From positions 1,465,254-1,529,253 of the forward strand of contig CP126120.1 of the NCBI GenBank assembly GCA_030123585.1: a stretch of 64,000 nt of DNA. Direction: 5' to 3'. The translations under genes were made by a program, and so were the position numbers. Position 1 is the stretch's first letter, and every line of letters starts with the position of its first letter. The DNA comes from Rhodanobacteraceae bacterium (lineage in GTDB: Bacteria; Pseudomonadota; Gammaproteobacteria; Xanthomonadales; Rhodanobacteraceae). Below the pieces are notes generated by a model. It saw nothing but the letters and a program-made list of their open reading frames with translations, ran no database searches and was not told the origin of the DNA. Shown one piece after another: positions 3,867 to 30,002 of the stretch.

Positions 3867-4936
3867 CAACGGCAGGCGAGTTCGTCGATCACCCTGTCGA
3901 GTGAAGTTTGCCAGTCCGGCAATTCCACGCCGAACGCTGCGCGCAGCTTCGACGTGTCGAGCACCGAATACGCGGGACGCACGGCTTTCGTCGGGTAGTC
4001 GGTGGTGCGGATGGCGGCGATCCGCAGCGCGCGTTCGATCACGCCTGCATGTCGTGCGCGCTCGAAAATCGCGCGGGCGAAGCCACACCAACTGGTCTGG
4101 CCGGATGCGACGAGGTGATAAATGCCGTCGCGCGCGGATGCATCATCGGCAAGCCATTGCGCGATGACCTGCGCGGTGACGTCCGCGATCAGCCGTGCCG
4201 GTGTCGGCGCACCGATCTGGTCATCGACGACGCGCAGTTCGTCGCGCTCCGCGCCGAGCCGCAGCATGGTGCGCAGGAAATTGTGGCCGCGCGCGGCGTA
4301 CACCCATGCGGTGCGAAAGATCAGATGCCGCGCGCCGCTGGCGCGCAACGCGATTTCACCGGCGAGCTTGCTGCGCCCGTACACGCCGAGCGGGTGCGTG
4401 GCGTCGTTCTCGCGGTACGGTTCGGTCGCGCTGCCGTCGAACACGTAGTCGGTCGAATAGTGCACGACGCGCGCTTCGTGGCGCGCGGCCCACCCGCCCA
4501 GCACGCCCAACGCATCGCCGTTGACGCACATTGCGGGACCGGACTCGTCCTCGGCGCGATCGACCGCGGTGTAGGCGGCGGCGTTGACGATCAGGTGCGG
4601 CGCGATGCGGTCGAGCGCGGCGCGCAAGCTTTCGAGGTCGGCCAGATCGATACACTCGCATCGCGTGCCGTCGTCGAGCTTGCCGCTGCGGGTAGCAGGG
4701 ATGACCACAGTTTCATCCCATCGCACCAACACACGCCCGTCTCCCTGTAGGAGCGGCGGAAGCCGCGACCCGGTCGGACCTCGTGGGAGCGGCGAAAGCC
4801 GCGTGAAGCTGCCATCCATGGCCAAGAACTCCGTGGTCGGGCCTTCCGGCCCTCCTACGATCGCCAGCGCTCGCAGCAGTTCGTGCCCCACCTGCCCGTT
4901 CGCGCCGGTGACGAGAATTTTGATCGGCTGCATCAC
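3866..4936 (-). CDS. rmlD: dTDP-4-dehydrorhamnose reductase RmlD, carrying an in-frame repeat insertion
   Basis: ILVTGANGQVG Rossmann motif, YSTDYVFDG, and GVYGRSKLAGE (YxxxK). About 45 extra residues (VGGPEGPTTEFLAMDGS...RLPPLLQGD) are encoded by a family B unit. Confidence 0.85.
   Translation of the reverse strand: MMQPIKILVTGANGQVGHELLRALAIVGGPEGPTTEFLAMDGSFTRLSPLPRGPTGSRLPPLLQGDGRVLVRWDETVVIPATRSGKLDDGTRCECIDLADLESLRAALDRIAPHLIVNAAAYTAVDRAEDESGPAMCVNGDALGVLGGWAARHEARVVHYSTDYVFDGSATEPYRENDATHPLGVYGRSKLAGEIALRASGARHLIFRTAWVYAARGHNFLRTMLRLGAERDELRVVDDQIGAPTPARLIADVTAQVIAQWLADDASARDGIYHLVASGQTSWCGFARAIFERARHAGVIERALRIAAIRTTDYPTKAVRPAYSVLDTSKLRAAFGVELPDWQTSLDRVIDELACR
4744..4860. repeat. Family B REP composite inside the rmlD coding frame
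   Basis: TGTAGGAGCGGCGGAAGCCGCGAC ... CCATCCATGGCCAAGAACTCCGTGG ... GGGCCTTCCGGCCCTCCTAC. Confidence 0.8.
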
Positions 4937-4962
4937 AGCTTTCGTCCCTTCAAACCTTGGCT

Positions 4963-5069
4963 GTCATTCCGGGGCCGGCGCAGCTTCATCGCGACGGAAC
5001 CCGGAATCGGTCTTGTGATTGCTACGAAACCGATTCCGGGTTCCGCGCTGCGCGCGGCCCCGGAATGAC
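4963..5069. repeat. Family A palindromic MITE-like unit (GTCATTCCGGGGC...GAACCCGGAATCGGT / ACCGATTCCGGGTTC...GCCCCGGAATGAC)
   Basis: Near-perfect ~107-bp hairpin between rmlD and rmlC. Confidence 0.85.
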
Positions 5070-5104
5070 GAAGAAAAGAATAGCCGGCCGCGCTGGCGAC
5101 CCGC

Positions 5105-5683
5105 TCAACCAGCCTGATACGTCGGCAGCTTGTCCGCGGACACATCGGCCAGGAACGGCGTTTGCTGGTCCTTCGCCGACAGCAGCGGTTCGGCCACTGG
5201 CCAGTCGATGCCGATGGCGGCGTCGTTCCAGCGCACGCCGGCGTCGGCCTTCGGGTCGTACAGCGCGGTGCATTGGTACATGAAGGTCGCGGCTTCGCTG
5301 ACCACGCAGAAACCGTGCGCGAAACCTTCCGGGATCCACAACTGGCGATGGTTGGCGGCGGTCAGCATCGCCGCTTCCCATTGCCCGAAGGTGGGCGAGC
5401 CGCGGCGGATGTCCACCGCCACGTCGTACACCTCGCCTTCCAGCACCGATACCAGCTTGCCCTGCGGATGCGGCCACTGGTAGTGCAGGCCGCGCAACAC
5501 GCCCCGCGCGGAACGCGAGACGTTGGATTGCACGAAACGCACGTCGATGCCGAGCGCCTTGTATTTCTCCGCGTGGAAACTCTCGAAGAAATAGCCGCGC
5601 GCATCACCGTGCACCACGGGTTCGATCACGCACACGCCGGGCAGGCGGGTGTCGATGCGTTTGAGGTGGGGTTGGTGGGACAT
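5105..5683 (-). CDS. rmlC: dTDP-4-dehydrorhamnose 3,5-epimerase
   Basis: Cupin motifs GVLRGLHYQ and WIPEGFAHGF. Typical length of 192 aa. Confidence 0.93.
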   Translation of the reverse strand: MSHQPHLKRIDTRLPGVCVIEPVVHGDARGYFFESFHAEKYKALGIDVRFVQSNVSRSARGVLRGLHYQWPHPQGKLVSVLEGEVYDVAVDIRRGSPTFGQWEAAMLTAANHRQLWIPEGFAHGFCVVSEAATFMYQCTALYDPKADAGVRWNDAAIGIDWPVAEPLLSAKDQQTPFLADVSADKLPTYQAG

Positions 5684-5741
5684 GCCATCAGTATCCTGTC
5701 GCGACTGCTCCGGAGCACAGTTTGTATTGGGGCTCTCAAGT

Positions 5742-5901
5742 TGTCATTCCGGGGCGACCCGAAGGGTCGAACCCGGAATCGGTTTTGTGGCAATCCCAAG
5801 ACCGATTCCGGGTTCCGTCGCGATGAAGCCGCTCCGGCCCCGGAATGACGAGTACGGAGGTGGTCGTACCGGGTTCCAGTTTGCGACGGCCCCGGAATGA
5901 C
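5742..5901. repeat. Family A repeat cluster
   Basis: GTCATTCCGGGGC and CCCCGGAATGAC arms between rmlC and rmlA. Confidence 0.8.
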
Positions 5902-5912
5902 GACTGGATGTT

Positions 5913-6788
5913 TCACCCGCCCACCAACCGCAGCAGGTATTGCCCATAACCCGTCTTCGCCAGTGGGGCCGCGAGCTCGCGCACGCGCGCGGCGTCGATC
6001 CAGCCGTGCTGGAACGCTATTTCCTCGGGGCAGCACACCTTCAGTCCTTGCCGGTTCTCGACCGTGGCGATGTAGTTGCCCGCGTCCATCATCGATTCAT
6101 GGGTGCCGGTGTCGAGCCACGCGTAGCCGCGGCCGAGTTGTTCCAGCATCAGCGAGCCGTCGTCCAGATAGCAGCGGTTGAGGTCGGTGATTTCAAGTTC
6201 CCCGCGCGGCGACGGCTTGAGTTGCGCGGCGAAATCGCACACGCGCCCATCATAGAAATACAGCCCCGTCACCGCGTAACTGGATTTCGGTTTGGCGGGT
6301 TTTTCTTCCAGCCCGATCACGCGACCGGTCGCGTCGAATTCGGCCACGCCGTAGCGTTCCGGATCGCGCACCAGGTAACCGAACACCGTCGCGCCGCATT
6401 CGCGCGCCGCGGCACGCTGCAACAATTCGGTGAAGCCGTGGCCGAAGAAGATGTTGTCGCCCAGCACCAGCGCGCAGGGATCGCCCGCGATGAATTCGCG
6501 CCCGATCAGGAACGCCTGCGCCAGGCCATCCGGCGAAGGCTGCACCGCGTAGCTGATCTTGATGCCCCACTGCGAACCATCGCCGAGCAGGTTCTCGAAC
6601 AACGCCTGCTCGTGCGGCGTGTTGATCACCAGCACCTCGCGGATGCCGGCCAGCATCAGCACCGACAGCGGGTAGTAGATCATCGGCTTGTCGTACACCG
6701 GCAGCAGCTGCTTGCTGACCGCCTGCGTCACCGGATACAGCCGCGTGCCTGAACCGCCGGCGAGGATGATGCCTTTTTGCGTCGTCAC
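5913..6788 (-). CDS. rmlA: Glucose-1-phosphate thymidylyltransferase
   Basis: N-terminus [16 protein letters not shown]. Strong RmlA-like sequence throughout. Confidence 0.95.
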
Positions 6789-6807
6789 GTTTTCATTCCT
6801 TGTGAAA

Positions 6808-7095
6808 ACCGATTCCGGGTTCCGCCGCGATGAAACCGCGGCGGCCCCGGAATGACCAGCCGGAACCCGGAATGACCAACAGATTTTGTCGTTCCGGGGC
6901 TGCCAGCGGATTCATGCTGGCAGAACCCGGAACCGGTTTCCGGCCACCCCAGGACCGATTCCGGTTCCGCCGCGATGAAACCGCGGCGGCCCCGGAATGA
7001 CCAGCCGGAACCCGGAATGACCAACAGATTTTGTCGTTCCGGGGCTGCCAGCGGATTCATGCTGGCAGAACCCGGAACCGGTTTCCGGCCACCCC
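6808..7095. repeat. Family A-derived ~143-bp unit duplicated in direct tandem (6808..6950 and 6954..7095)
   Basis: Two nearly identical copies (one 1-nt indel seen) separated by AGG. Confidence 0.85.
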
Positions 7096-7104
7096 GGCCA
7101 ACCC

Positions 7105-7395
7105 TCACTGGCTGATCTCCGGCCACAAATCCCGCCAGTCGGGATTCGACTTTTCGATCAGCGCAATCTTCCAGGCTCGCCGCCACTTCTTCAATTCCTT
7201 CTCGCGTTCGATCGCCTCGATCATCGAACGAAATTGTTCGAAATGCACCAGGCGGTGGATGCCATGTTGCCTGGTGAAACCCTCGACCACATTGTTGCGA
7301 TGTTCCCAGATGCGCTTGACCAGGTCCGACGTCACGCCGATGTAGAGCGTGCCGTAGGGTTTGGTGGCCAGGATGTAAACGGCGGGTTCGCGCAA
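7105..7395 (-). CDS. GIY-YIG nuclease family protein (96 aa)
   Basis: AVYILATKPYGTLYIGVTSDLVKRIWEH is a GIY-YIG motif. A TTG start at comp 7393..7395 is assumed because the upstream part of the ORF is repeat translation. Confidence 0.75.
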   Translation of the reverse strand: MREPAVYILATKPYGTLYIGVTSDLVKRIWEHRNNVVEGFTRQHGIHRLVHFEQFRSMIEAIEREKELKKWRRAWKIALIEKSNPDWRDLWPEISQ

Positions 7396-7471
7396 GAGGC
7401 GGCTCCGAAACCAGTGTGGCGGGTTCGCCTGCGTCGCCACCCGTCGGCGCTGCGGCGAACAGTGAAGATAA

Positions 7472-7710
7472 ACCGATTCCGGGTTCCGCCGCGATAAAGC
7501 CGCGACGGCCCCGGAATGACGAGTATGGAGGTGGCCGTGCCGGGTTCCGCCGCGATGAAACCGCGCCGGCCCCGGAATGACCACCTGCGAATTTGTCGTT
7601 CCTGGTTCTGCCCGCGGTAATGCCGCGGCGGCCCCGGAATGACAAGCATAGAGGTAGTCATTCCGGGGCCATCGCCGGCTCCATCGGCGATGGAACCCGG
7701 AATCGGTTTC
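7472..7710. repeat. Family A repeat cluster (several CCCCGGAATGAC arms)
   Basis: Lies between the GIY-YIG gene and rmlB. Confidence 0.8.
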
Positions 7711-7745
7711 GCAGAAGCCGTCGCAATGCCGACCGACACCAGCAT

Positions 7746-8804
7746 TCACCCCCGCCCCAACCGCTCCATCCGATAGCTGCCATCCAGCACGCGCTGCACC
7801 CACGGCTGGTTGGCGAGGTACCAGTCAACCGTGCGGGCGAGGCCGGTTTCGAAATCGACCGACGGCTTCCAGCCGAGTTCGCGTTGCAGCTTCGACGAAT
7901 CGATCGCGTAGCGACGGTCGTGGCCGGGGCGATCCTTCACGAACTCGATCAGCGATTCACGTTGGCGGCCGTCGTCCAGCGGACGTTTCGCGTCCAGCAG
8001 CGCGCAGATGGTTTTCACCACATGGAGGTTCTCGCGCTCGGAATCGCCGCCCACGTTCCAGGTTTCGCCCACGCGCCCCGCTTCCAGCACCCGTCGGATG
8101 GCGCTGCAGTGGTCCAGCACGAACAGCCAGTCGCGGATGTTCCTGCCATCGCCGTACACCGGCAATTTTTCGCCTGCCAGCGCGCGCGCGATGATCAGCG
8201 GAATCAACTTCTCCGGAAACTGGTACGGCCCGTAATTGTTCGAGCAATTGGTGGTGAGAACCGGTAATCCGTAGGTGTGGTGGAACGCACGCACCAGATG
8301 GTCGGAAGCCGCCTTCGACGCCGAGTACGGCGAATTGGGCGCATACGGCGTGGCTTCGGTGAACTTGCCGGTCGCGCCCAGCGAGCCGTACACCTCGTCG
8401 GTGGAGACGTGCAGGAAGCGAAACCCGTCCTTCGACGCGCCGTCCAGCGCCTTCCACCAATCGCGCACCGCTTCCAGCAACGCCAGCGTGCCGACCACGT
8501 TGGTTGCGATGAACGCGGCGGGGCCATCGATGGAACGATCGACGTGCGATTCCGCGGCGAAGTTCACCACCGCATCGGGCCGGTGTTCGGCCAGCAGCTT
8601 CGCCACCAGCGCACGATCGCCGATGTCGCCCTGCACGAACACGTGCCGCGCATTGCCTTCCAGCGGTTTCAGCGTGTCGAGGTTGCCAGCGTAGGTCAGC
8701 TTGTCCAGGTTGACCACGGTCAGCCCGTCGGCCACCGCCTGCAGCACGAAATTGCCGCCGATGAACCCGGCGCCGCCGGTGACCAGCAAGGTCCCCATTG
8801 ACAC
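7746..8804 (-). CDS. rmlB: dTDP-glucose 4,6-dehydratase
   Basis: [20 protein letters not shown] (YxxxK), 352 aa. Confidence 0.95.
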
Positions 8805-9003
8805 GAATCTCCGTCACGCAAAGGGCGTATTGTGTCACAGGTGCGGAATCGCCCATGACCGGTACCAAGCGTGCATCCGCGCCACCGCCCATACCCACCT
8901 CCCGGCAAGCGTGCGTTCAAACGGTCACGGTATGCCGATTGGCACGCATCGTGCTGCAGGAAATCCCGGAGCATCTATCTGGTCAGGAACAGGGGCTCCC
9001 GAA

Positions 9004-9036
9004 CGGTCGCGCCGCAAGGCGCGGCCGTTTGCTTTT
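9004..9036 (+). terminator. Intrinsic-terminator-like hairpin with no obvious upstream plus-strand gene
   Basis: CGGTCGCGCC-GCAA-GGCGCGGCCG (10-bp stem, one mismatch) followed by TTTGCTTTTCC. Confidence 0.35.
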
Positions 9037-9065
9037 CCTGGTTAACGCTGATCCTCAGCAAATTG

Positions 9066-9270
9066 CTTTGTCATTCCGGAGCGGGCCGCAGGCCCGAATC
9101 CGGAATCGGTTTGATTCTTCGCACACCGCGACGCTGGTTGACTCGCGGCATTCATGGCCAAGAGTTCCATGATCACGACCACGGGCTCCTACACCTGCCC
9201 TTGTAGGAGCGTGCTTGCACGCGATGGGTGTTTGTCCCTGCAGGAGCGTGCTTGCACGCGACCGGCGCGC
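9066..9270. repeat. Family A half-unit (9070..9112) plus a family B-like variant (TGTAGGAGCGTGCTTGCACGCGA, two copies)
   Basis: Read directly. Lies upstream of pilA1. Confidence 0.7.
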
Positions 9271-9308
9271 CAACAAAACCGTGAACCACGTCACACTTCA
9301 TTCCCGAC

Positions 9309-9324
9309 TGGCATGCAATGTGCT
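9309..9324 (+). promoter_or_regulatory. Candidate sigma54 (-24/-12) promoter of pilA1
   Basis: TGGCATGCAATGTGCT has GG and GC at consensus spacing (TGGCAC-N5-TTGCW). It lies 45 nt upstream of the ATG. Confidence 0.5.
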
Positions 9325-9368
9325 GTGACATTTGGTGACACGAGCATGGGAACAGGGGTTCCTTCGAC

Positions 9369-18669: not shown

Positions 18670-18918
18670 ATGGCAACCATGACCATCCGCAATCTCGACG
18701 ACGCGGTCAAGCAGCGCCTGCGCGTGCGTGCGGCACAGCACGGCCGATCGATGGAAGACGAAGCGCGGGACATCCTGCGCAGCTCGCTCTCCACGGAGTC
18801 CGCGCGCGCGACGTCGCTGGTCGACGCGATTCGGGCGCGCATCGAACCGTTGGGCGGCATTGATCTCGAGATCCCCCCGCGTGAACCTGTGCGCAAGCCG
18901 CCGCGACTCGGTGCATGA
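18670..18918 (+). CDS. FitA/VapB-like (Arc/RHH, plasmid-stability type) antitoxin
   Basis: MATMTIRNLDDAVKQRLRVRAAQHGRSMEDEARDILR. Confidence 0.8.
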   Translation: MATMTIRNLDDAVKQRLRVRAAQHGRSMEDEARDILRSSLSTESARATSLVDAIRARIEPLGGIDLEIPPREPVRKPPRLGA

Positions 18919-19343
18919 TCGTCCTCGACACCAACGTATTGTCGGAACTCCTGCGCCCGCAGCCGAATACCCGGGTGATGGCGTGGCTGTCAGCGCGCCC
19001 GGCCGCATCGTTGTTCACCACCACCGTGACGCGCGGCGAAATCTTGTACGGGATACGACTGTTGCCTGCCGGGCGACGGCGCAACGCCCTGCAGGATGCA
19101 GTCACCGCCATCTTCGATGAAGATTTCGCCAAGCGCACCCTGCCCTATGACAACCCCGCCGCGGATCACTATGCCGACATCGCGGCCAGCCGCAGGACCA
19201 AGGGACGCCCCATCAGCCAGTTCGACGCCATGATCGCAGCCATTGCACGTTCCCGCGGTGCATCGCTGGCGACCCGCAACACTCGGGATTTCACCGGTTG
19301 CGGCATCGACCTCACCGACCCCTGGACGGCCAAGACGACGTAA
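18915..19343 (+). CDS. vapC: FitB/VapC-like PIN toxin
   Basis: MIVLDTNVLSELLRPQPN..., ATRNTRDF. 4-nt overlap with the antitoxin. Confidence 0.85.
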   Translation: MIVLDTNVLSELLRPQPNTRVMAWLSARPAASLFTTTVTRGEILYGIRLLPAGRRRNALQDAVTAIFDEDFAKRTLPYDNPAADHYADIAASRRTKGRPISQFDAMIAAIARSRGASLATRNTRDFTGCGIDLTDPWTAKTT

Positions 19344-19375
19344 GCTTGCCTTTCACCACCGCGGGGTTCGATGGC

Positions 19376-19633
19376 ATGATGGATTGGAAACGCCATCATG
19401 TCTCCAGCGCCGAGTTCCTCAACGCGATGAACGCACGCCGCATCGGCACCGGCGTGCACTACCTCTTTGTACCGGAGCATCCTCATTACCAGCGACGCTT
19501 CGGCTGGACGCCCGAACAATGGCCCAACGCCATGCGGATTGGGCGACAAACCGTCAGCCTTCCGTTGTCGCCGAAACCAACCGATGCGGATGTGACAAGG
19601 GCGATCACGACCGTGCGCAGGCTGGTCGCATAG
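19376..19633 (+). pseudogene. C-terminal remnant of a DegT/ArnB-type PLP sugar aminotransferase
   Basis: RRIGTGVHYLFVPEHPHYQRRFGWTPEQWPNAMRIGRQTVSLPLSPKPTDADVTRAI resembles only the last ~80 residues of ArnB/DegT enzymes. No N-terminal part is present. It starts where the preceding TA module ends. Confidence 0.65.
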
Positions 19634-19825
19634 GAGCGGGGGCGCTGACGCCCCCACCACCGCGCGCGGGCGCGCTCCTACGACGAACAACGCACCAGCC
19701 ATCTGCTTGCAGCGCATCGCGCCGTTCCCGATTGGACGGGCTTCAATTCCCGATTGGACGACGCCAGAATCCGGAGCGGACGTCTGTCCGCACTGGAAGC
19801 GTGGCGCCTTGGCGAGCCTTGGTAG

Positions 19826-19859
19826 TTGCGCTTGACCAGACCAGTCGATAGACTGGTCT
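19826..19859 (+). promoter_or_regulatory. Candidate sigma70 promoter (TTGCGC-17-TAGACT) overlapped by a perfect 9-bp inverted repeat, probably a TA operator
   Basis: AGACCAGTC (19838..19846) - GATA - GACTGGTCT (19851..19859). Lies upstream of the Phd-like gene. Confidence 0.5.
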
Positions 19860-19884
19860 TGAAAAACCGAACGTGGACACGATC

Positions 19885-20127
19885 ATGCAAACCGAAATTG
19901 GCGCCTACGAAGCCAAGACCCGCCTTCCGGAACTGTTGCGCCAGGTGCGGAAGGGCAAGTCTTTCACCATCACCAACCGCGGCGAAGCCGTTGCCGAGTT
20001 GGTACCCGTCCGGCATGCAGCCGAGGCCGACGCGACGCGAGCCGTCGAACAGATGAAAGCATTCATGCGAACCCATCGCGTGCGGGGCGTGAACATCAAG
20101 GCCTTGATCGAGGAAGGCCGCCGTTGA
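19885..20127 (+). CDS. Phd/YefM family antitoxin
   Basis: MQTEIGAYEAKTRLPELLRQVRKGKSFTITNRGEAVAELVP. The track start is GTG 19873; ATG 19885 is preferred. Confidence 0.8.
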   Translation: MQTEIGAYEAKTRLPELLRQVRKGKSFTITNRGEAVAELVPVRHAAEADATRAVEQMKAFMRTHRVRGVNIKALIEEGRR

Positions 20128-20543
20128 GCTTCGTGCTCGACAATTCCGTCGTGATGCGCTGGTGCTTCGGCGATGGCAAACCTGCCGACCTCGCATACGC
20201 CACCAAGGCCATGGAGGCGCTGCCCGGCAGCACGGCAATGGTCCCGATCATCTGGGCGCTGGAAGTTGCCAACGTACTCGCGCGCGCCGAGTACGCCGGC
20301 TCGATCGATGTGGCCCACGGCGACGCGTTCCTTGCCATGCTGCGCAAACTCCCCATCGAAACGGATGTCGAGGGCGCGGCCTTTGCGCTCTCTGAAACTC
20401 TGGGTCTGGCCCGCCGCCATCGCCTTTCCGCGTACGATGCCGCCTATCTGGAACTGGCGCTGCGCAGGCAACTGCCACTCGCCACGCTTGACGCCGCATT
20501 GCGCAAGGCAGCAAAACGCGCGGGCGTGAGCTTGTTCGGATGA
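20124..20543 (+). CDS. vapC: VapC (PIN-domain) toxin
   Basis: MSFVLDNSVVMRW..., LSAYDAAYLELA. 4-nt overlap with the antitoxin. Confidence 0.8.
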   Translation: MSFVLDNSVVMRWCFGDGKPADLAYATKAMEALPGSTAMVPIIWALEVANVLARAEYAGSIDVAHGDAFLAMLRKLPIETDVEGAAFALSETLGLARRHRLSAYDAAYLELALRRQLPLATLDAALRKAAKRAGVSLFG

Positions 20544-20711
20544 GGCGCGGAATCGACCATCGCGACGCGACCACGTCTACGCCGCCGTCCAGCGCGACAT
20601 GTTGCGCGGCACTGCGCCGCCTCAACTACGCCATCAGGCTGGACAAACAGCTTGTGTTCCTCGAATGGCTCACGAGACAGGGCGCAAGCCCAGCGCACTC
20701 CTGAGCAATCC

Positions 20712-21953
20712 ATGACAGGCCCCATCGCACGCGGCACGATTCGCACCACGTTCGTGCTGGGTCTTCGCCTGCTGGTGCAGGCCGGCACGCTGTTGCTGGT
20801 CGCACGCATGCTGGGGCCGCAGCAGTTCGGCGCGTTCGCGGGCGTGGCCGCGCTGGCGGTGATGCTGGGCACGCTCGCGACCTTCGGCACCCATCTGGTG
20901 TTGCTTGGCGAGGTGTCGAGGGAACCCGAGCGACGCGAGCAAGTGCTGTCTTACGCCATACCCACCACGCTGATGTGCGGCGGCGCGTTGCTGATCGTGT
21001 ATCTGCTGATCTGCATGCTGGCCTTGCGTGAAAGCGGGGTCGCGTTGCCGGTATTGCTCGCCATCGGCATCACCGAGATGTGGCTGCAGCCGTTGTTCGG
21101 ATTCCCCGCAACCGAACACCTGGCGCTGGGCCGCATCGCCCGTTCGCAAATGCTGCAAACGTTGCCACTGGCACTGCGCCTCGTCGCTGCGGCCAGCGTC
21201 TTCCTGCTGAAGCCTGCCGATCCGCTTGCCGCATACGGCTATGGCTACCTCGTCGCATCGTTGCTGGCACTCGGCTTCGCAACATTCACCATGCCATCGC
21301 CGTGGCCGCCCCTGAGCCGTTGGTGCCTGCCGAAAACCGCGGAACTACGTGAAACTGCGGGTTACGCCGCGCTCGCCATCACCGCGACCAGCCCCGCGGA
21401 ACTCGACAAGACCCTGGCTGCCAAGTTGCTGCCTCTCGGCGCCGCGGGTGTATATGCCGCAGGCGCAAGAGTGATCGGTGCCGCTACGTTGCCGGTGGTT
21501 GCAATGATGCTGTCGGCGCTCCCGCGCTTATTCCGCGAAGGACAGGATCAACCCAAACGCACCACGCACCTGCTGCGTTGGATCTTCGGCGCCGCTCTCG
21601 CCTACAGTCTCGCGCTGGCTGTCGTGCTGTGGTTCATCTCGCCGGTATTCGATTGGCTGTTCGGTGCGAAGTACCACGGTATCGCTCACACCATCCATTG
21701 GTTGTGCCTTGCTGTGCCAGGAATGGCCTTACGAGTGGCGGCAGGCAGCGTGCTGATGGCGCTCGGTCGGCCATGGATGCGCGTTGCATTCGAGGTATTG
21801 GGTCTGGCAACCCTCGCAGTCGCAGCACTACTTCTGACGCCACGAATGGGCGCCATAGGCATGCCGGTGGCGCTCGCATTTGCAGAGTGGGTCATGGCCA
21901 TCGTGGGCGGTATCCTAGTATCGATGGCTGCCGGGCGCGTGCAGCTAAGGTGA
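20712..21953 (+). CDS. wzx: Wzx-like oligosaccharide flippase (MOP superfamily)
   Basis: ~413 aa, polytopic. The N-terminal pattern ...LLVQAGTLLLVARMLGPQQFGAFA... is typical of polysaccharide biosynthesis/flippase proteins. Start chosen at MTGPIARG. Confidence 0.7.
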   Translation: MTGPIARGTIRTTFVLGLRLLVQAGTLLLVARMLGPQQFGAFAGVAALAVMLGTLATFGTHLVLLGEVSREPERREQVLSYAIPTTLMCGGALLIVYLLICMLALRESGVALPVLLAIGITEMWLQPLFGFPATEHLALGRIARSQMLQTLPLALRLVAAASVFLLKPADPLAAYGYGYLVASLLALGFATFTMPSPWPPLSRWCLPKTAELRETAGYAALAITATSPAELDKTLAAKLLPLGAAGVYAAGARVIGAATLPVVAMMLSALPRLFREGQDQPKRTTHLLRWIFGAALAYSLALAVVLWFISPVFDWLFGAKYHGIAHTIHWLCLAVPGMALRVAAGSVLMALGRPWMRVAFEVLGLATLAVAALLLTPRMGAIGMPVALAFAEWVMAIVGGILVSMAAGRVQLR

Positions 21954-22043
21954 CGGAGTACCGATTGACACCATTCACCAGCTTGACGTTTTGACAATCT
22001 GCGCTCAGATTGTCGAAGGGTCACCGACGTCCGAAGGCTCGGC

Positions 22044-22985
22044 TTGTCACACACGCATCCCACGCTCCTAATAACCGCCGCTGGTACCGGTACCGCGTAC
22101 GCGTATGTATTGGCGGTTCGCAAGTACTTTCCGGCACTCCGAGTGATTACCGCAGATACGAACCCGCGCCATCTGGTTGCGGGATCATGCTTGGCTGACC
22201 TGCACATCGTACTTCCATCGTTCGATCCGAATAGCTACGGCGAACACATTGTAAAAGTCTTAACTCAACATGGAGTCACGCACTACTTACCAATCATCGA
22301 CCCAGAGATTCTATTCGCGGCGGAGTGGCATGAACCCATATGCACTGTTATGACCCCAGACGCCAAGTTCTGCCGCAATGCGTGCGAAAAATCTCTTTAC
22401 GCAAGCCACTTCGCCGCACCCGAGATCGAGTTTCCACGACCAATACAACGCGACAATATCACCAGCAGCCTTCCCTGTTGGGCAAAAGGCAATGGAGGGT
22501 TCGGTGGTCGATCGAATCGGTTCATTACTTGCGAGGCGGACCTAGTAGGAATCCCCGACAACTGGGTCTTGCAAGAGCATATCGAGGGCCGGGAATTCAC
22601 AGTTGACTGTTTCCCATACGCAGATGGTCTAACCACTTGTTCAGTGCGCGAACGTCTACTCATTAAGGCGGGCGTTTGTACCCGCGCACACTTAATCAGA
22701 CACGCGAGGTTGGAGAACGTTGCAACAACATTGGGAAAGATGATGCAACGCAAATCGCCATTTTGCTTCCAAGCGATGGAGCGTAATGAGGGTTCGATCG
22801 TCGTTACCGACATCAACCCGCGCCTCGGCGCCGGTACCGCATTAAGTGTTGCTAACGGCATGGAGTTCTTTGCAGCACATCTTTCCAGCATGTTTGGCGG
22901 CGATCCGCACAACTTCCTTGAGCGCCGGTACGCAACGTGCTACGCAAGCAGGCAGTACACGGAATTCCTATCTCCAGAACCATGA
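22044..22985 (+). CDS. ATP-grasp domain protein (candidate amide/carboxylate-amine ligase)
   Basis: TTG start. LLITAAGTGTAY N-terminus, QEHIEGREFTVDCF and VVTDINPRLGAG are ATP-grasp-like motifs. Confidence 0.6.
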   Translation: MSHTHPTLLITAAGTGTAYAYVLAVRKYFPALRVITADTNPRHLVAGSCLADLHIVLPSFDPNSYGEHIVKVLTQHGVTHYLPIIDPEILFAAEWHEPICTVMTPDAKFCRNACEKSLYASHFAAPEIEFPRPIQRDNITSSLPCWAKGNGGFGGRSNRFITCEADLVGIPDNWVLQEHIEGREFTVDCFPYADGLTTCSVRERLLIKAGVCTRAHLIRHARLENVATTLGKMMQRKSPFCFQAMERNEGSIVVTDINPRLGAGTALSVANGMEFFAAHLSSMFGGDPHNFLERRYATCYASRQYTEFLSPEP

Positions 22986-23611
22986 TTGTCGCTTTGGACC
23001 TCGATGGAACATTGCTGACGTGTATGCCACGTCACTGCGCAGTGGCGCGATACGCACTCGCGGTGTCAGCCCCTGGCCACGCCGTCGCGTTCAATGCCAC
23101 ACGCTTCTGGAACCAGAAGCGTAACGGTCACACCACACGTGAATGTCTTTTCTCATACGGGGAACATACTGCCAACGTCGCAGCTGAGATCTGGCGCGAT
23201 CAGATTGAAAACATTAACTGGCTGGCGATGGATTCAGTACTGGCTGGCACACTCAGCGTGTTGCAGCGCGTGCGCCGCAGCAGAACGCGTCTAGTGCTAA
23301 TCTCGGCGCGACGAGACGTCCGAGCCGCCTACTGCCAGGTTATCAGGCTTGGGCTGCATGACTACTTCTCGCGCGTGCACTTTGTGCCTCAGCAGGATAC
23401 GGCTAACGAAAAGGCAACCGCGCTCCGTGAGGTTGGAGCCAGAATATACATTGGCGACACCGAACTTGACTTCGCGGCAGCGACCACTGCCGGCATAGAA
23501 TGCCGCTTGGTGGACACGGGTGTACGCAGTGCGACGTATCTGACGAACCACACTAACGTGCCAGTCTTTCATTCACTCGCAGAGGCATTGCCCGATGGAC
23601 TTAACGGCTGA
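22982..23611 (+). CDS. HAD-superfamily hydrolase/phosphatase
   Basis: MIVALDLDGTL (DxDxT motif I) and YIGDTELDF (motif IV). ATGA overlap with the ATP-grasp gene. Confidence 0.75.
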   Translation: MIVALDLDGTLLTCMPRHCAVARYALAVSAPGHAVAFNATRFWNQKRNGHTTRECLFSYGEHTANVAAEIWRDQIENINWLAMDSVLAGTLSVLQRVRRSRTRLVLISARRDVRAAYCQVIRLGLHDYFSRVHFVPQQDTANEKATALREVGARIYIGDTELDFAAATTAGIECRLVDTGVRSATYLTNHTNVPVFHSLAEALPDGLNG

Positions 23612-24317
23612 AACCAAACGATTGGACGACATTGCGACCGACTCTGTATACGCGGTTGGAGCAAATCGTGCCATGATCGAATACTGCTTTTGTATCCTGC
23701 AACGTCTCTTTCCGAGGCCCCGACACGTGCTCGAGATGGGCCCAGCCGAGGGCGTCATGACGGAACGGCTACGTAAGATCAGCGACCATCTGAGCGTCGT
23801 CGAGGGCTCTCCGGCATTCTGCGACGACATTGAGAAGCGGTTCCCTGAGGTTCGCACTCATTGCGCGCTTTTCGAAACTTTTGACACCAATGATCGTTTT
23901 GACCTCATCGTGCTCGGCCACGTCTTGGAACACGTTGAGGACCCGGTGGCCGTCCTTCGCCGTTCAGCGGGGTGGCTTGCGCCCGGTGGCTCCATATTCT
24001 CAGCAGTACCTAACGCCCGATCGCTACACCGCCAAGCTGCTGTCATCATGGGACTTCTTGAATGTGAAGACCAGCTGAACGATATGGATCGCCACCATGG
24101 CCATCGCAGAGTCATGAATCCCGAATCATTTCGCGCTTGCTTTCGGCAAGCAGGCCTTCGCATAAATACCTTTGGAGGATATTGGCTTAAGCCAGTCAGT
24201 AGCGGACAAATCGAACAAACGTGGACCTCAGGTATGCTCGACGCATTCATGCAACTAGGAGAGCGTTACCCCGACATTGCAGGCGAGATGTACGTCGTCG
24301 CCGGCGCGAGTACATAA
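23595..24317 (+). CDS. Class I SAM-dependent methyltransferase
   Basis: VLEMGPAEG motif I and DLIVLGHVLEHVEDP. Confidence 0.8.
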   Translation: MDLTAETKRLDDIATDSVYAVGANRAMIEYCFCILQRLFPRPRHVLEMGPAEGVMTERLRKISDHLSVVEGSPAFCDDIEKRFPEVRTHCALFETFDTNDRFDLIVLGHVLEHVEDPVAVLRRSAGWLAPGGSIFSAVPNARSLHRQAAVIMGLLECEDQLNDMDRHHGHRRVMNPESFRACFRQAGLRINTFGGYWLKPVSSGQIEQTWTSGMLDAFMQLGERYPDIAGEMYVVAGAST

Positions 24318-24370
24318 TGCCACTCTAGCCGAACCCATCAAGCTCCAATTCCATTACGGTACCCCGAAAC

Positions 24371-24775
24371 GTGGATATCGCGAATTGCAGGATCATTCAG
24401 TTGCCTAAAGTGTCAGACCCTCGGGGCAACCTGACCTTCATTGAGGGCGGGCAGCACGCACCATTCGATATCCAGCGCGTGTATTATCTCTACGACGTTC
24501 CGGGTGGCGCTGAACGCGGCGGCCACGCGCACAAGGCACTGCATCAGTTGATTGTGGCAATGTCAGGTAGTTTTGATGTAGTACTGGACAACGGCCGCGA
24601 AAAGAAGCGCTTTCATCTCAATCGTTCATACTACGGGCTGTACGTCTGTCCCATGATCTGGCGCGAACTCGATAATTTCTCATCGGGATCGGTATGCATG
24701 GTGCTAGCGTCGAATCACTACGATGAGGCAGATTACTACCGGGACTATGATGCGTACTTGGCTGCGCGGGAGTAA
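24371..24775 (+). CDS. fdtA: FdtA/WxcM-type sugar 3,4-ketoisomerase (cupin)
   Basis: [15 protein letters not shown]...[20 protein letters not shown]. 134 aa. GTG start. Confidence 0.8.
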
Positions 24776-24776
24776 C

Positions 24777-25889
24777 GTGGTGCGTGTTCCATTTTTGGAC
24801 CTCCGCGCAGCATACGTCGAGCTTAAGAGCGAGATCGATACAGCCGTGGCGCGCGTGCTCGGTAGCGGTCGCTACGTCCTCGGCGATGAAGTCGATGCCT
24901 TCGAAAACGAGTGGGCGTCGTATTGCAACACTGAGTACACAGTCGGTGTTGGCAACGGCCTCGATGCGTTGCACCTAGCATTACTTGCAATGGATGTCCG
25001 ATCGGGTGACGAAGTCATTGTACCGTCCAACACCTATATCGCGACGTGGCTGGCGGTCAGCCAGTGCGGCGCGGTACCTGTGCCGGTCGAACCTGTAGAA
25101 GCCACCTACAACCTTGATCCGGCGCGTATCGAAGCCGCGATCACGCCGCGAACGAAGGTCATCCTGCCCGTGCACCTCTACGGCCAACCGGTTGATCTGG
25201 ATCCCATCCTTGCTATCGCCAAGAAGCATGCCCTCAAGGTGCTGGAAGACGCGGCCCAAGCTCACGGTGCGCGCTATAAGGGCCAACGCATCGGCGCGCA
25301 CGGAGACGCCGTAGCGTGGAGCTTCTACCCGGGCAAGAACCTTGGTGCGCTGGGCGACGCTGGGGCTGTGACCACCCACGATGCGGAGCTGGCGGATAAG
25401 GTACGTATGCTGCGTAACTACGGCTCGCGTGCGAAATATGTCAATGACGTGCAGGGCTGGAATAGCAGGCTCGACCCACTGCAGGCTGCGATACTGAGGG
25501 TGAAGCTGAAGTATCTCGACGAGTGGAATACGCGGCGCTTCCACTTTGCAAGTGAATACCGCAGCCGTATTACCTCCCGCTCCGTAACACTTCCGTCGAT
25601 ACCGGCCTGGGCCGTACCAGCGCGGCATCTTTTCGTGATTCGATGCGCCCACCGCGACGCACTGCAATGTCATCTCACGCAGCGGGGTATCGAAACACTG
25701 ATCCATTACCCCATACCACCTCACCGGCAATGTGCTTATGACGGCCACGGCGGGACACACACCCCACTCTCCATTGCGGATCGCCTGGCTAACGAGGTAC
25801 TAAGCCTGCCTCTCGGTCCACATATGCACGAAAGCGACATCGAAGCAGTCGTATCGGCGATCAACGACTTTTGCCCGGCTACAACGTGA
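24777..25889 (+). CDS. fdtB: DegT/DnrJ/EryC1-type PLP sugar aminotransferase (FdtB-like)
   Basis: [10 protein letters not shown]..., [19 protein letters not shown] (active-site Lys context). A GTG start at 24777 follows the fdtA stop directly. Confidence 0.85.
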
Positions 25890-26869
25890 GCACATCGACT
25901 GAAGATCAGACCGTGACGCAGACCAATGGCGACATCGACTCGCCATTGGTCACTTTCGCGCTGCTTGCATACAACCAAGAAAGGTACGTCGATGCAGCAA
26001 TCGAAGCGGCGCTCGCCCAGACCTGGTGCAATCTCGAAATTATCTTATCGGACGATTGTTCGAGTGATTCAACTTTTCAGATCATGGAAGCTAGGAGCAG
26101 GAGCTACCGCGGACCCCACAAGATCCGCTTGAACCGCAACACATCAAATTTGGGTATCGCCAGCCACGTGAATACAGTGATTTCGCTCGCAAGTGGACGA
26201 TTAGTGGTCCCAGCTGCAGGCGACGATATTTCCAAACCATCACGGACTACCCGCATTGTCGAAGCATGGCGAAACACTGGGTATGGTGCGGCTTGTTTCC
26301 ACTCCGGCTTTGAAGATATGGAGACGGACGGCACGCTGATGGGCACGTACGTCAAAGCAACGTTGCAGGCACCGAGTGTCGATCATTTACTTTTCGAAAA
26401 TGTTGTCGTCGGCGCCACGGAGGCATGGACGCGCGAAGTGTGGGATTTCTTCGGCCCCTTGAATCCGTCAGTCACGCACGAGGACAGAAACATGGCAGTC
26501 CGCGCTGCGCTTCTTGATGGCATACACTACATCCCCGAATCACTAGTTGCACGCCGCAGAGGTGGCGTCAGTGCCAATGCAGCAGTGCCCAAGCGTGTTG
26601 CGCGGTACAAAAACGCAATTCGTTATACCTGCGATATAGCGCAATCGATATGTGATTTTCACACAGCGCTATCAAAGGGGCTGATAGATGAACGCCGGTA
26701 CGCAAGTTTGCTCGGCAAGGTATCCGACAGACTCTCTTTTGAGACTTTGCTGCTACGCGACACAGGTATGCTCGGCATGGAGTACGCGTGTTTAATCGAC
26801 ATTTTGAAGACTTTCAGGCGAACCGGTTTTGCCCTCTACAAGGCGATCCGACTTAGATCTGCAACTTGA
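25871..26869 (+). CDS. Family 2 glycosyltransferase
   Basis: [26 protein letters not shown]...ILSDDCSSD, and AAGDD. Start is uncertain. Confidence 0.8.
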
Positions 26870-26887
26870 GGGCGCACCCAAAACCTA

Positions 26888-27838
26888 TCACAACCGAGCG
26901 GGTCTATGACGCTTTCTTGCATGCAACCCGTTGCGTATTCCGCTGATCAAACCTTGGGCCTGTTCAAAACGGCGGCGATCAAACGCCAAGTGCACCACTA
27001 AAACGATGAACAACTTCACGCTCGCCCATATCTTCCAAACGGTGGGCACATAATCGCTACCCATCAAGACGATGGCATTCCTCGCGAGAAAATAGTGTCG
27101 TTGTGGCGAACGCGATGGCCACACCCTCCAGCCGAACCACCAGAAGCGTACGCTTGACTGCCCCATGCGATGAACGAACACTGCGCTGGGGATGCCCCAA
27201 AGCGTGTAGCCAGATGCGAGTACGCGGAACGCCCATTCGGTATCCACGTGATCGATGAACAACGGTTCATCGAGTCCGTGGAGTTGCCTGAACAGGGAAA
27301 CAGGTACGAGAGTACCGCTACCGTTGAGGTTGGCGCACGGCACGGGCGCCGTCGATCCGATAGGTGGGTAGACGCGCTTCCAGCGCCAACGCGTGCACTG
27401 ATGGAACCCATGAGTGAGCCCAGTATCGGGGTCACGCAACAACGGACCGACGCAACCAACCTTCTCGCCCGCATGTTCCAGCGCTTCGAACGCGGCGATC
27501 AAGGATTCGACGCTGCCAGGTTGCGGCTCGCTGTCCTGGTCCAGCAGCAGCACGAAGCGTGGGGGCGCTGCAAGCTCCGACGCGGCATCCACACCGCGAT
27601 TGACGGCAGCTGCGAGGCCAATGTTGGAGTCGTTGCGCAACACACGCACATTTTCCACCCGGCTTGCCAGCGCTTCGATTTGCGCAACGAGTTCAGGCCG
27701 CGAGGCGTTGTCCACGATGAATTTGGTGCACGGTGCAGGCAGTGCCCGCAACTGTGTTTCCAGCAAGGCGATGTCGGGATTGAAGGAAACCGTGACCGTC
27801 GCCAAGGTTCTCACGTCCACCGAAGTCGTGGCGTTCAT
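26888..27838 (-). CDS. Family 2 glycosyltransferase (rhamnosyltransferase-like)
   Basis: VTVSFNPD..., VDNAS..., LLLDQDS, GSGTLV. ATGA overlap with the upstream methyltransferase. Confidence 0.75.
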   Translation of the reverse strand: MNATTSVDVRTLATVTVSFNPDIALLETQLRALPAPCTKFIVDNASRPELVAQIEALASRVENVRVLRNDSNIGLAAAVNRGVDAASELAAPPRFVLLLDQDSEPQPGSVESLIAAFEALEHAGEKVGCVGPLLRDPDTGLTHGFHQCTRWRWKRVYPPIGSTAPVPCANLNGSGTLVPVSLFRQLHGLDEPLFIDHVDTEWAFRVLASGYTLWGIPSAVFVHRMGQSSVRFWWFGWRVWPSRSPQRHYFLARNAIVLMGSDYVPTVWKIWASVKLFIVLVVHLAFDRRRFEQAQGLISGIRNGLHARKRHRPARL

Positions 27839-28575
27839 GCAGGCACGCACTCGATGCGGTAGATCAATGTAGGGATGATGCGTCTTAGCGGCGCCAGCAG
27901 CTCATCGGGCATCCGACGTAAAACACCTGCGCCGAACGATTGCGGATGTTCAATCTCGAATGTGGCACGCCATGCTTCGATACAGAGGTTTCGGTAACGG
28001 AATCCGGCCGCGGCCAGCATGCGTTCCAGTTGGCGCATCTGCAGGGGCTCGCAATCGTAGAACGTGCCTTTGCGCATCAGGCGCAGGTACGGCGTGCGCC
28101 ACGCGTGCGGCCACCAGCTCAGGAACTTCAGCTGGAAGTGCGGCTCGGTGAGCATCCAGCGGTTGGGGACGGCAAGGTAACCGACGCCATCGGGCTTCAT
28201 CACGCGATGGATTTCGGTGAGGTGCCGGTGCTGTGCGTCGGCATCGCCCACGTGTTCGATGACGTGGTTGGTGATCACGACATCAAAGCTGGCGTCGCCA
28301 AATGGAAGTTCAACGCCCTGTACCTGCTGGAACGCGTAACCTTCCCGCACTTGGCGGTTGTCGTAAACGTCCACCGCCGTCACGTCGCAACGCAAATTCG
28401 GGTGCGTACCAAACCAGTGCGCGATGCCGCCAGCACCCGTGCCGATTTCCAACAGGCGCATCGGTTGCGGGCGGCTCGCAAGATCGAGCAGGCGCGCGAT
28501 CTTCATGGCCTTCCAGTCGCGCGAAGGCAGGTCGAGTACGGCGTGGGCTTGGCGTGGGAGGATGTGCGTGCTCAT
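27835..28575 (-). CDS. Class I SAM-dependent methyltransferase
   Basis: LLEIGTGAGGIA motif I and DVVITNHVIEHVGD. This is only the C-terminal 246 aa of the 639-aa track ORF. The start makes an ATGA overlap with the GT4 stop. Confidence 0.8.
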   Translation of the reverse strand: MSTHILPRQAHAVLDLPSRDWKAMKIARLLDLASRPQPMRLLEIGTGAGGIAHWFGTHPNLRCDVTAVDVYDNRQVREGYAFQQVQGVELPFGDASFDVVITNHVIEHVGDADAQHRHLTEIHRVMKPDGVGYLAVPNRWMLTEPHFQLKFLSWWPHAWRTPYLRLMRKGTFYDCEPLQMRQLERMLAAAGFRYRNLCIEAWRATFEIEHPQSFGAGVLRRMPDELLAPLRRIIPTLIYRIECVPA

Positions 28576-30002
28576 CGTGCGACCGTTGGCTGTTCCGATG
28601 CGGCCAGCCGCAATTGTGCGACGATTTGCGAGCCGAATGCGGGCCACGCGAAACGCTGCGCGAAGGCGATGCAACTGGTGCGCATTGCATGATGCGCCAC
28701 GAGCGCACCCAGCGCGGCATCGGCAAACAGTGCGTAATCGCCGGGCGGCACGAGGTAACCGGACTGGCCTTCTTCCACGGCATCGACCACGCCGCCGGTG
28801 GCGAATGCGACGGTGGGCAGGCCATGCGCCGCGGCTTCCACGGCAACCATGCCGAAGCCTTCCGGATCGCCCGGAATCTCGCGCACCGGAAATACGTGCA
28901 CGTCGGCGGCGCGGTAGACGGTCCCGAGTTCCGCATAGTCGGTGATCGTGCCGAGGAAGCGCAGGTTGTCCGCAACGCCTGCCGTTGCTGCAGCGGTACG
29001 GATGCTGTCGGGGGTTTGCGCTTCGGCGTGCAGCGCTTCGTTCGGCGCATCGCCGACGATCAACAGCACGGCATCGGGCCGGACAGCGACGATGCGGGGG
29101 AGACATTGCGCGACGAATTCGCGCAGGCCCTTGCGGGCGGACAGGCGGCCGACGGAGAGCAGGATCGGGCGGCCGGCGAGGTTGTGGCGCTGGCGGAAGG
29201 CATTGGTCGGGCCTTCCGGCCCTCCTACAGACGTCGCCGCTCTCCTTGTAGGAGCGACGGATGTAGGAGCGGCGGAAGCCGCGACCGTGGAGCTGGCCAT
29301 GGACGGCATCCCGCCGCGGATCGGGCCTTCCGGCCCTCCTACAGACGTCGCCGCTCTCCTTGTAGGAGCGACGGATGTAGGAGCGGCGGAAGCCGCGACC
29401 GTGGAGCTCTTGGCCATGGACGGCATGTCGGTAGCCTTGCAATCGCCGTTCGGGCCTTCCGGCCCTCCTAGGGGGACGGTACGGTTCGGCAAATCGACGC
29501 CCGGATGCACGATGCCGATGCGCGCGGGATCGACGCCGATGCCGCGGCACAGCGCGGCGGTTGCGTGGCTGTTGGCGATCACGCGATCCATGCGGCGGAT
29601 GGCCGGCAGCCACAGCGCGCGATAAACCGGATGCCTTACCGCGATGTCGAGACCGTGCACATAGACGGCGGAGCGCGCGCGGCCAATGCGTGCGGCGGAT
29701 CGCGCCAGCGGCGCGGCGAGTCCGCTGCCGGCCAGCACGATGTCGGGCTTCCACTGTCTTGCTTCACGGCGAGCCAGGGAACGCGCACGCAGCAGGAATT
29801 TCCACAAGGGTTTCAACGGCGCTTCGCGCACGCTGACGCCGGCGGGTGCGAGTGCGGCGGAACCTTGCGGCCCGATGATGCGCACCTCGGCCACCTTCGC
29901 CAGTTCCTCCGCCATGTGCCAGTTGAGGCGCTCCATGCCGCCGACCAGCGGCGGCAGGTTGCGGGTGATGAGAAGAATGCGGGGACGGCGCGGCTCGGTC
30001 AT
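28572..30002 (-). CDS. GT4 (GT-B fold) glycosyltransferase with a ~260-bp in-frame repeat insertion in the inter-domain linker
   Basis: N-terminus ILLITRNLPPLVGGMERL. The C-domain has EGFGMVAVEAAAHGLPTVA (EX7E region). The insert encodes GGPEGP...SAAPTSVAPTRRAATSV twice. Confidence 0.8.
   Translation of the reverse strand: MTEPRRPRILLITRNLPPLVGGMERLNWHMAEELAKVAEVRIIGPQGSAALAPAGVSVREAPLKPLWKFLLRARSLARREARQWKPDIVLAGSGLAAPLARSAARIGRARSAVYVHGLDIAVRHPVYRALWLPAIRRMDRVIANSHATAALCRGIGVDPARIGIVHPGVDLPNRTVPLGGPEGPNGDCKATDMPSMAKSSTVAASAAPTSVAPTRRAATSVGGPEGPIRGGMPSMASSTVAASAAPTSVAPTRRAATSVGGPEGPTNAFRQRHNLAGRPILLSVGRLSARKGLREFVAQCLPRIVAVRPDAVLLIVGDAPNEALHAEAQTPDSIRTAAATAGVADNLRFLGTITDYAELGTVYRAADVHVFPVREIPGDPEGFGMVAVEAAAHGLPTVAFATGGVVDAVEEGQSGYLVPPGDYALFADAALGALVAHHAMRTSCIAFAQRFAWPAFGSQIVAQLRLAASEQPTVAR
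29207..29470. repeat. Family B composite units in tandem (repeat starts at 29207, 29321, 29450; periods 114 and 129 bp) inside the GT4 frame
   Basis: TCGGGCCTTCCGGCCCTCCTACAGACGTCGCC... repeated. Both periods are multiples of 3. Confidence 0.9.

Follow-up and report, generated by a model that had tools for sequence, protein, structure and literature searches.

The closest described counterparts of the sequences reported here are the GTAG- and CGTC-tagged REP superfamilies (Di Nocera et al. 2013, BMC Genomics 14:522; PMC3733652). These are short, mostly extragenic palindromes that occur as dimers or clusters, and RAYT genes bordered by them are referred to as REPtrons. Some of these REPs lie wholly inside known genes, including those for tRNA synthetases and helicases, where they are in-frame and encode 20-82 residues. 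The inserts were argued to be neutral, occupying flexible linkers or loops, with inactivated genes being lost from the population. It was also reported that GTAG REPs donate TAG stop codons to flanking genes, and that two Xanthomonas species carry different REPs at approximately the same site in recB (PMC3733652). The present analysis concerns repeat units embedded in four genes of a surface-polysaccharide locus from a Rhodanobacteraceae bacterium, namely rmlD, a GT4 glycosyltransferase gene, and two paralogous genes for membrane proteins. The stretch of DNA that was analyzed, hereafter the window, comprises 64,000 nucleotides, corresponding to positions 1465254-1529253 of a genome of 3.29 Mb that consists of one contig and has a GC content of 65% (GenBank GCA_030123585.1, contig CP126120.1).

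A second precedent is provided by the Rickettsia palindromic elements, or RPEs (Ogata et al. 2000, summarized in PMC10969869 and PMC3733652), which are in-frame palindromic selfish DNA residing in many unrelated genes. The products of the host genes are thought to be still functional, the positions of the inserts being compatible with the protein folds. A third is the REPIN/RAYT system, in which REPINs have been described as extragenic populations (Bertels & Rainey 2011, PMC3116915). On the basis of the comparisons presented below, the inserts in the window are taken to be copies, or local tandem expansions, of two selfish palindromic families that are tolerated by their hosts and kept readable by purifying selection. 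A probability of roughly 0.85 is assigned to this reading.

An earlier note on this DNA, prepared from the nucleotide sequence alone, had placed repeat units at five sites in the four genes, and recognizable units were indeed found at each. They belong to a GTAG-tagged palindrome (family 1, here GTAG-REP) and to an untagged one (family 2, here CATTCCGG units). The rmlD gene (dTDP-4-dehydrorhamnose reductase; 3866..4936, minus strand) encodes 356 residues, and its product matches both Pfam RmlD_sub_bind (E=2e-98) and the equivalog model TIGR01214 (326 bits versus a cut-off of 224). Its coding sequence contains, at 4744-4860, a GTAG-REP composite of 117 bp in which three units can be recognized: 4747-4766(+), 4783-4802(+), and 4839-4858(-). 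Membrane gene 1 ("GT-C paralog 1" in the earlier note; 12684..15014, plus strand) specifies a 776-residue multi-pass protein with a weak C-terminal TPR match. Its insert at 13118..13391 (plus strand) is composed of CATTCCGG units at 13120-13153 and 13209-13244 together with a 33-bp x4.8 array at 13227-13384. This array is a tandem repetition of the right arm of the CATTCCGG unit and encodes AAGHGMTNEVG repeats. Membrane gene 2 ("GT-C paralog 2"; 15075..17285, plus strand), the paralogue of membrane gene 1, encodes a 736-residue multi-pass membrane/TPR protein with inserts in two loops. The first holds an in-frame pair of CATTCCGG units at 15511..15610 (plus strand; units 15513-15548 and 15573-15608). 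The second, at 15974..16024 (plus strand), is a 51-bp head-to-head GTAG-REP doublet (units 15975-15994 + and 16004-16023 -) that encodes 17 residues in-frame. The gene for the GT4 glycosyltransferase (GT-B fold) occupies 28572..30038 on the minus strand, with a frame of 488 residues from a GTG at 30038 and a called ATG start at 30002 that yields 476 residues. The insert in its inter-domain linker at 29207..29471 (minus strand) is a GTAG-REP composite with a period of 114 bp, present in ∼2.3 copies, and the units occupy 29209-29228(-), 29263-29282(+), 29323-29342(-), 29377-29396(+), and 29452-29471(-). The junction peptides predicted for the inserts include ...LRALAIVGGPEGPTTEF..., AAGHGMTNEVG, and SAAPTSVAPTRR.

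All four open reading frames (ORFs) remain open through the inserts in translation, and sequence typical of the respective family lies on both sides in one ORF, as had been noted before. In RmlD, the GANGQVG motif (GxxGxxG) precedes the insert, and STDYVFDG and YGRSK follow it, the latter providing the catalytic YxxxK motif with the invariant Y186 and K190. In the GT4 protein, a Glyco_transf_4 domain precedes the insert and a Glycos_transf_1 domain with its E-x7-E motif follows, both above the Pfam cut-offs; E381 and E389 are invariant in the orthologue alignment. For the two membrane proteins, orthologue alignments reveal conserved sequence on either side of the inserts. Their GT-C assignment is tentative. 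Searches of Pfam, NCBIfam, and the PDB sequences, with the insertion-free orthologues included, gave no GT-C match and only weak TPR matches, and the N-terminal FDD(F/Y)xN motif and numerous hydrophobic segments are compatible with a GT-C protein but do not prove it.

Thirty related genomes were searched with each of the four proteins. Conserved anchor motifs were sought in all reading frames such that frameshifted alleles could be detected. Six loops were followed, that is, the five sites and a second site in rmlD described below. In the relatives all four genes display split matches within a single open frame, with no internal stops and with gap lengths that are very variable. Insertion-free orthologues, which define the boundaries of the inserts, were found for every gene: genomes G009, G010, and G005 have no insert in rmlD, G008 has none in the GT4 gene or in either membrane gene, G004 has none in the two membrane genes, and G011 has none in membrane gene 2. 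In other species, precisely these loops hold inserts that range from a few residues to over 100. When measured against the insertion-free baselines, the distance between anchors is 300 nt versus 150 nt in rmlD (∼50 additional residues), 366 versus 87 nt in membrane gene 1 (∼93), 270 versus 108 nt in the first loop of membrane gene 2 (∼54), 249 versus 174 nt in its second loop (∼25), and 333 versus 78 nt in the GT4 gene (∼85). The units lie where the earlier note had put them, but the extents given there require extension, for the additional segments are longer than the recognizable units. In rmlD, for example, the extra segment spans 4703..4860 (minus strand), or approximately residues 27-78.

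Across the genus, 35 distinct non-baseline lengths were observed at the six loops. All 35 are multiples of three, and all 35 are free of stops. On either side of the inserts, alignments of 18-26 orthologues show preserved catalytic motifs and over 100 invariant columns. Selection was judged from this motif conservation and from the in-frame census instead of from the ratio of nonsynonymous to synonymous substitution rates, which is unsuitable for the flanks because amino acid identities of 55-80% would saturate the synonymous sites. The alignment with insertion-free orthologues that the earlier note had called for consequently bears out its proposal of selection for translatability. These same data speak to the idea that the hosts are decaying pseudogenes, open by chance since GC-rich repeats seldom hold stops. 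In a genome of 65% GC long spurious ORFs are common, five of the six frames through the conserved arms of each unit type are stop-free, and gene callers have truncated some of the orthologues at the insert. A length that keeps the frame would, however, arise by chance in only ∼1/3 of events, as opposed to the 35 of 35 seen, and neither the conservation of both flanks nor the absence of internal stops in all of the relatives searched is expected of decaying genes. The truncated annotations, moreover, are start-site miscalls, with the N-terminus lying in the same frame. Decay is therefore regarded as very unlikely. With regard to such annotations, public rmlD entries of 286-288 residues (L047:1051-1560 and L048:400-910, both from contigs of metagenome-assembled genomes) begin past the insert and lack the NAD-binding GxxGxxG motif; the missing N-terminus is located upstream in the same frame, which marks these entries as start-site miscalls caused by the insert.

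The earlier note had also described those unit lengths that it could count exactly as multiples of three. This holds for both in-gene arrays, with periods of 33 and 114 bp, but it is not an intrinsic property of the elements. Tandem Repeats Finder, applied to the whole genome, located intergenic arrays of the same families with nine periods that leave a remainder of one upon division by three (31, 31, 34, 61, 106, 124, 124, 145, and 220 bp) and seven that are multiples of three (42, 45, 45, 51, 57, 102, and 117 bp). Because the intergenic periods are so often out of frame, the preservation of the frame within genes reflects selection on the translated genes rather than a feature of the repeats. 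As for stops, the one frame of the conserved arms that contains them does so through the TAG of GTAG or the TGA of GGAATGAC, and the frames used in the host genes, as read from the sequence, avoid it. Only 15 of the 199 GTAG-REP units and four of the 162 CATTCCGG units in the genome lie wholly inside called genes, whereas called coding sequence amounts to 88.6% of the genome. Together, the in-frame lengths and the depletion from genes are the mark left by insertion at random and subsequent filtering through purifying selection.

In the unit of family 1, GTAGGAG precedes a hairpin with a 5-bp G+C stem and a loop of GGAA or GGCA, as in GTAGGAGCGGCGGAAGCCGC and GTAGGAGGGCCGGAAGGCCC. Five stem variants are represented, among them GCGGC-GGAA-GCCGC and GGGCC-GGAA-GGCCC. 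The units are mostly arranged as inverted pairs or clusters, namely 51-bp head-to-head doublets and arrays with periods of 31-124 bp. Family 2 is a hairpin of ∼40-50 nt, GTCATTCCGGGGC-(inner stem-loop)-GAACCCGGAATCGGT, corresponding to the "CATTCCGG…CCGGAAT" palindrome, and has no GTAG tag. Using consensus-based definitions, 199 GTAG-REP and 162 CATTCCGG units were counted genome-wide, compared with three and zero, respectively, in a reversed-sequence control. These definitions replaced a loose hairpin regular expression for the GTAG family, which gave 235 matches versus 230 in the control, and a CATTCCGG pattern with one mismatch allowed, which returned 121 "units" in genes; both were discarded as noise. 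Units of both families fold as hairpins, with the CATTCCGG pair at 15511-15610 having a folding z-score of -4.1, and only 0-2 mismatches separate the in-gene units from the consensus of their family. An Rfam scan of the window yielded no family match.

A gene for a RAYT-type Y1/HUH transposase is located at 2029276-2029605 of the genome. It scores above the cut-off for PF01797, contains the HxH motif in "PDHMHAL", and has GTAG-REP arrays on either side (2028741-2029184 and 2029759-2030019). This is the classical arrangement of a RAYT gene among its REPs, and it identifies family 1 as a GTAG-tagged REP. Judged additionally by its tagged palindrome, its copy number, and its occurrence in dimers and clusters, family 1 is classed as the repeat component of a REP/RAYT system. 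At 955400-955726 of the genome there is another Y1_Tnp gene, which is bordered by a GTAG repeat of a different kind (GTAGGTTGGGCT...). With respect to genes, 153 of the 199 GTAG-REP units lie between them and 31 overlap a gene end, the remaining 15 being the internal ones. For 31 called genes, the adjoining GTAG REP provides the stop codon through its TAG, with a 4-nt overlap; examples are those at genome positions 26138-27472, 28996-30303, and 31806-33134.

The inserts examined in the related species differ in sequence from those of the window. In G018 and G002, the rmlD inserts of 297 and 339 nt derive from a "CCCCCTTC…GAAGGGGG" family, which is represented by 43 copies in G018, 33 in G002, 14 in G012, and none in the window genome. 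The rmlD insert of G012 belongs to yet another repeat family, and the rmlD loop of G017 holds the same 51-bp GTAG-REP doublet that is found here in membrane gene 2. Where the window genome has the 33-bp array in membrane gene 1, G018 contains CATTCCGG units and a 39-bp array, and its GT4 gene harbors a 24-bp x7 array. As the inserts examined in the relatives are constructed from their own repeats, the loops have been repeatedly remodeled by the resident repeats of each lineage. The second rmlD loop, at the equivalent of residues 293/294 following ...FARAIFE (window ∼4055-4060), is empty in this genome; in G017 and G018 it holds in-frame repeat inserts of 23 and 51 residues, and several metagenome proteins also carry inserts there.

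In the window genome, CATTCCGG units are present at the homologous loop in each of the two membrane paralogues (13118-13391 and 15511-15610). An insertion older than the paralogue duplication was considered and rejected, as G004 and G008, with an insert in neither copy, and the insertion-free membrane gene 2 of G011 speak against it. The two inserts seem to postdate the duplication, having arisen by independent hits or by gene conversion.

Given that the genome is metagenome-derived and rich in repeats, it might be argued that the inserts or their copy numbers are artefacts of assembly. Short-read assemblies are broken by repeats, and the contigs of several relatives end inside these very loops. 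The genome itself, however, is one contig. Furthermore, soil-metagenome unitigs from three independent studies contain the whole rmlD insert with both junctions and show zero differences from the window, and for the GT4 gene unitigs span both junctions and one full 114-bp period, again without differences. This confirmation does not extend to how many copies the 33-bp and 114-bp arrays contain. Related inserts also occupy the same sites in many independently assembled genomes. The check on assembly that the earlier note had advised therefore came out in favor of genuine inserts at the rmlD and GT4 junctions, and an artefact is scarcely credible. In one wastewater metagenome, a strain at a depth of ∼945x matches the window to 4773 and from 4963, but not over 4774-4962, which points to another allele in the region of the rmlD insert and the N-terminus and hence to strain-level variation of the loop.

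Models of RmlD and the GT4 protein were calculated with AlphaFold2 using the orthologue alignments, and both display well-folded cores with a predicted template-modeling score of 0.75. Residues 28-75 of RmlD, which are positioned between helix alpha-1 of the Rossmann fold (15-27) and strand beta-2, have predicted local distance difference test (pLDDT) values below 50 and adopt no secondary structure. The GT4 model is composed of two Rossmann-like domains. Residues 175-261 (476-residue numbering), which connect the last strand of the N-terminal domain to the first helix of the C-terminal domain, are likewise unstructured with pLDDT values below 50. The earlier note had anticipated that the inserts would fall in loops or linkers, and the models agree: the RmlD insert is predicted to form a disordered loop and the GT4 insert a disordered inter-domain linker, each between confidently folded elements. 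The three inserts of the membrane proteins presumably lie in loops as well, judging from the hydrophobic segments that flank them.

The distribution of such inserts in the genome was surveyed with an 18-mer census in which the other copies of a repeat were required to be mostly intergenic. An initial census with 14-mers had been swamped by GC-rich codon repeats. In total, 27 called genes (∼1% of genes) contain internal dispersed repeats. Hosts confirmed by Pfam include those encoding methionyl-tRNA synthetase (MetRS), the glycyl-tRNA synthetase beta subunit (GlyS), an E2 acyltransferase, a Mur ligase, and HrpB. Judged by eye, PurL, a large Lhr-like helicase with five sites, an IcmF-like mutase, and an ABC-F ATPase can be added. 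Intragenic inserts are thus not special to surface-glycan genes and occur in housekeeping genes as well. Few genes carry as much repeat sequence as the four in the window, the maximum being the 267 bp of the GT4 gene, and this heavy load goes with the very high local density of repeats. A single 702-residue ORF at 2525334-2527442 (minus strand) of the genome begins with a bioF-like aminotransferase and ends with a bioH-like hydrolase, with ∼133 bp of CATTCCGG-family repeats between the two. It represents a gene fusion mediated by the repeats or else an ORF that reads through an intergenic repeat.

A sequence of events can be proposed for the window. Palindromic units would have landed within coding sequence of a surface-polysaccharide locus that is very dense in repeats, the mobility of the GTAG-REP units presumably being driven by the RAYT protein. 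Following insertion, slippage or unequal recombination would generate random length variants, with slippage the probable source of the arrays. In genes that are needed, the variants that persist would be those whose length is a multiple of three, whose frame is free of stops, and whose position is a surface loop or an inter-domain linker. The survivors would then be translated, and retained in the mature protein, as disordered peptides rich in Gly, Pro, Ala, and Ser that the fold tolerates, most likely at no cost; the 35 in-frame, stop-free variants lend translation indirect support. A loop once colonized would remain a hot spot, in keeping with the other lengths found in related species and with the other resident families in those inserts that were examined. 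Ordinary survivorship under purifying selection would account for the preserved frames, and no special mechanism need be invoked. Removal in the manner of an intron or an intein was also considered and set aside, for it would not require stop-free inserts in multiples of three built from genome-wide repeats.

The GTAG-REP units are strikingly clustered, with 110 of the 199 (55%) falling into two 50-kb bins. The first is the surface-polysaccharide locus of the window (window 1-32000), and the second, at 2.012-2.046 Mb, is a polysaccharide/secretion locus that holds the RAYT gene. The latter (2012000-2046000) encodes an O-antigen-type ABC transporter, sulfotransferases, glycosyltransferases, proteins resembling those of a type II secretion system, and two paralogous secreted proteins of ∼505 residues. 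Such a concentration in surface-polysaccharide loci would be expected if the inserts were adaptive, serving as hypervariable modules of the glycan enzymes or as hairpins that act in mRNA or DNA on the expression of glycan genes, be it through stability, ribosome pausing, supercoiling, or recombination. In line with this, the same loops are variable in every species examined, the in-gene units have kept near-consensus hairpins, and exopolysaccharide (EPS) clusters of Thauera are also flanked by GTAG-1 arrays, with 5-bp stems (PMC3733652). Yet the insert peptides are unconserved among close relatives, their content and length turning over, and the same kinds of insert reside in unrelated housekeeping genes such as those for MetRS, GlyS, PurL, and helicases. 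On/off switching of the frame is precluded by in-gene periods that are multiples of three, and insertion-free orthologues are common. An adaptive role is accordingly considered unlikely. A broader proposal, in which REP-colonized loops act as heritable "landing pads" for successive lineage-specific families and may thereby supply adaptive variability in envelope-glycan enzymes or regulation by mRNA hairpins, is doubtful at present.

Tolerated selfish repeats under purifying selection thus remain the favored explanation, and there are several points that weigh against it. Neutral tolerance alone explains neither the clustering of the GTAG-REP units in two polysaccharide loci nor the reuse of the same loops by different families. 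No transposase could be linked to the CATTCCGG family. A search for RNA-sequencing runs that cover rmlD found none listed. The predicted disorder may stem in part from the lack of aligned homologues over the inserts. Finally, neutrality is an assumption, and an 85-residue insert in the hinge of a GT-B enzyme could affect domain closure.

When viewed beside the REPs of PMC3733652, the system described here shares the GTAG tag, the dimers and clusters, the REP-flanked RAYT gene, the in-frame units within genes, and the tRNA synthetase and helicase hosts. It differs in being found in an uncultured genus of the Rhodanobacteraceae with rmlD, a GT4 gene, and two membrane/TPR protein genes as hosts, in the participation of a second palindrome family without the GTAG tag, in the turnover at the same loops among many species with 35 length variants, and in the tandem expansion within genes with periods of 33, 39, 24, and 114 bp. 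The RPEs, compared here by description only, are similar in that they, too, are in-frame palindromic selfish DNA in unrelated genes. Those elements are ∼100-150 bp in length, each has a conserved peptide reading, and their host is an obligate intracellular alpha-proteobacterium, whereas the units in the window are 20-50 bp, are stacked or expanded, and encode peptides that are not conserved between species. As in the REPIN/RAYT system, there are inverted REP doublets of ∼50 bp, such as the 51-bp doublet at 15974-16024, and a repeat-flanked RAYT gene; here, however, doublets occur within ORFs, and two loci account for over half of the units.

In light of the continuity of the ORFs, the insertion-free orthologues, and the predicted loop and linker positions in RmlD and the GT4 protein, the present case can be classed with the in-frame intragenic palindromic elements. 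The phenomenon itself has already been published for the intragenic GTAG/CGTC REPs and the Rickettsia RPEs, and the survivorship argument was put forth in PMC3733652; the form it takes here is unusually dynamic. What is new are the hosts, the lineage, the untagged second family, the tandem expansion within genes, and a well-sampled turnover at the same sites across a genus. With six loops followed in many species, it constitutes a clean comparative example of how selfish palindromic DNA lengthens proteins without destroying them, with purifying selection acting as a simple filter on the length, frame, and position of an insert. There is also a practical aspect in that gene callers truncate such genes and matches to hidden Markov models are split by the inserts. 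If the loops were true insertion hot spots with surface-glycan phenotypes, they would connect REP/RAYT biology to diversification of the envelope.

Amid the repeat-rich genes of the window there is, in addition, a cassette of lower GC content at 22000-27800 (∼56% versus 65%). Its genes were left uncalled by a gene caller based on codon usage, which fits a foreign origin.

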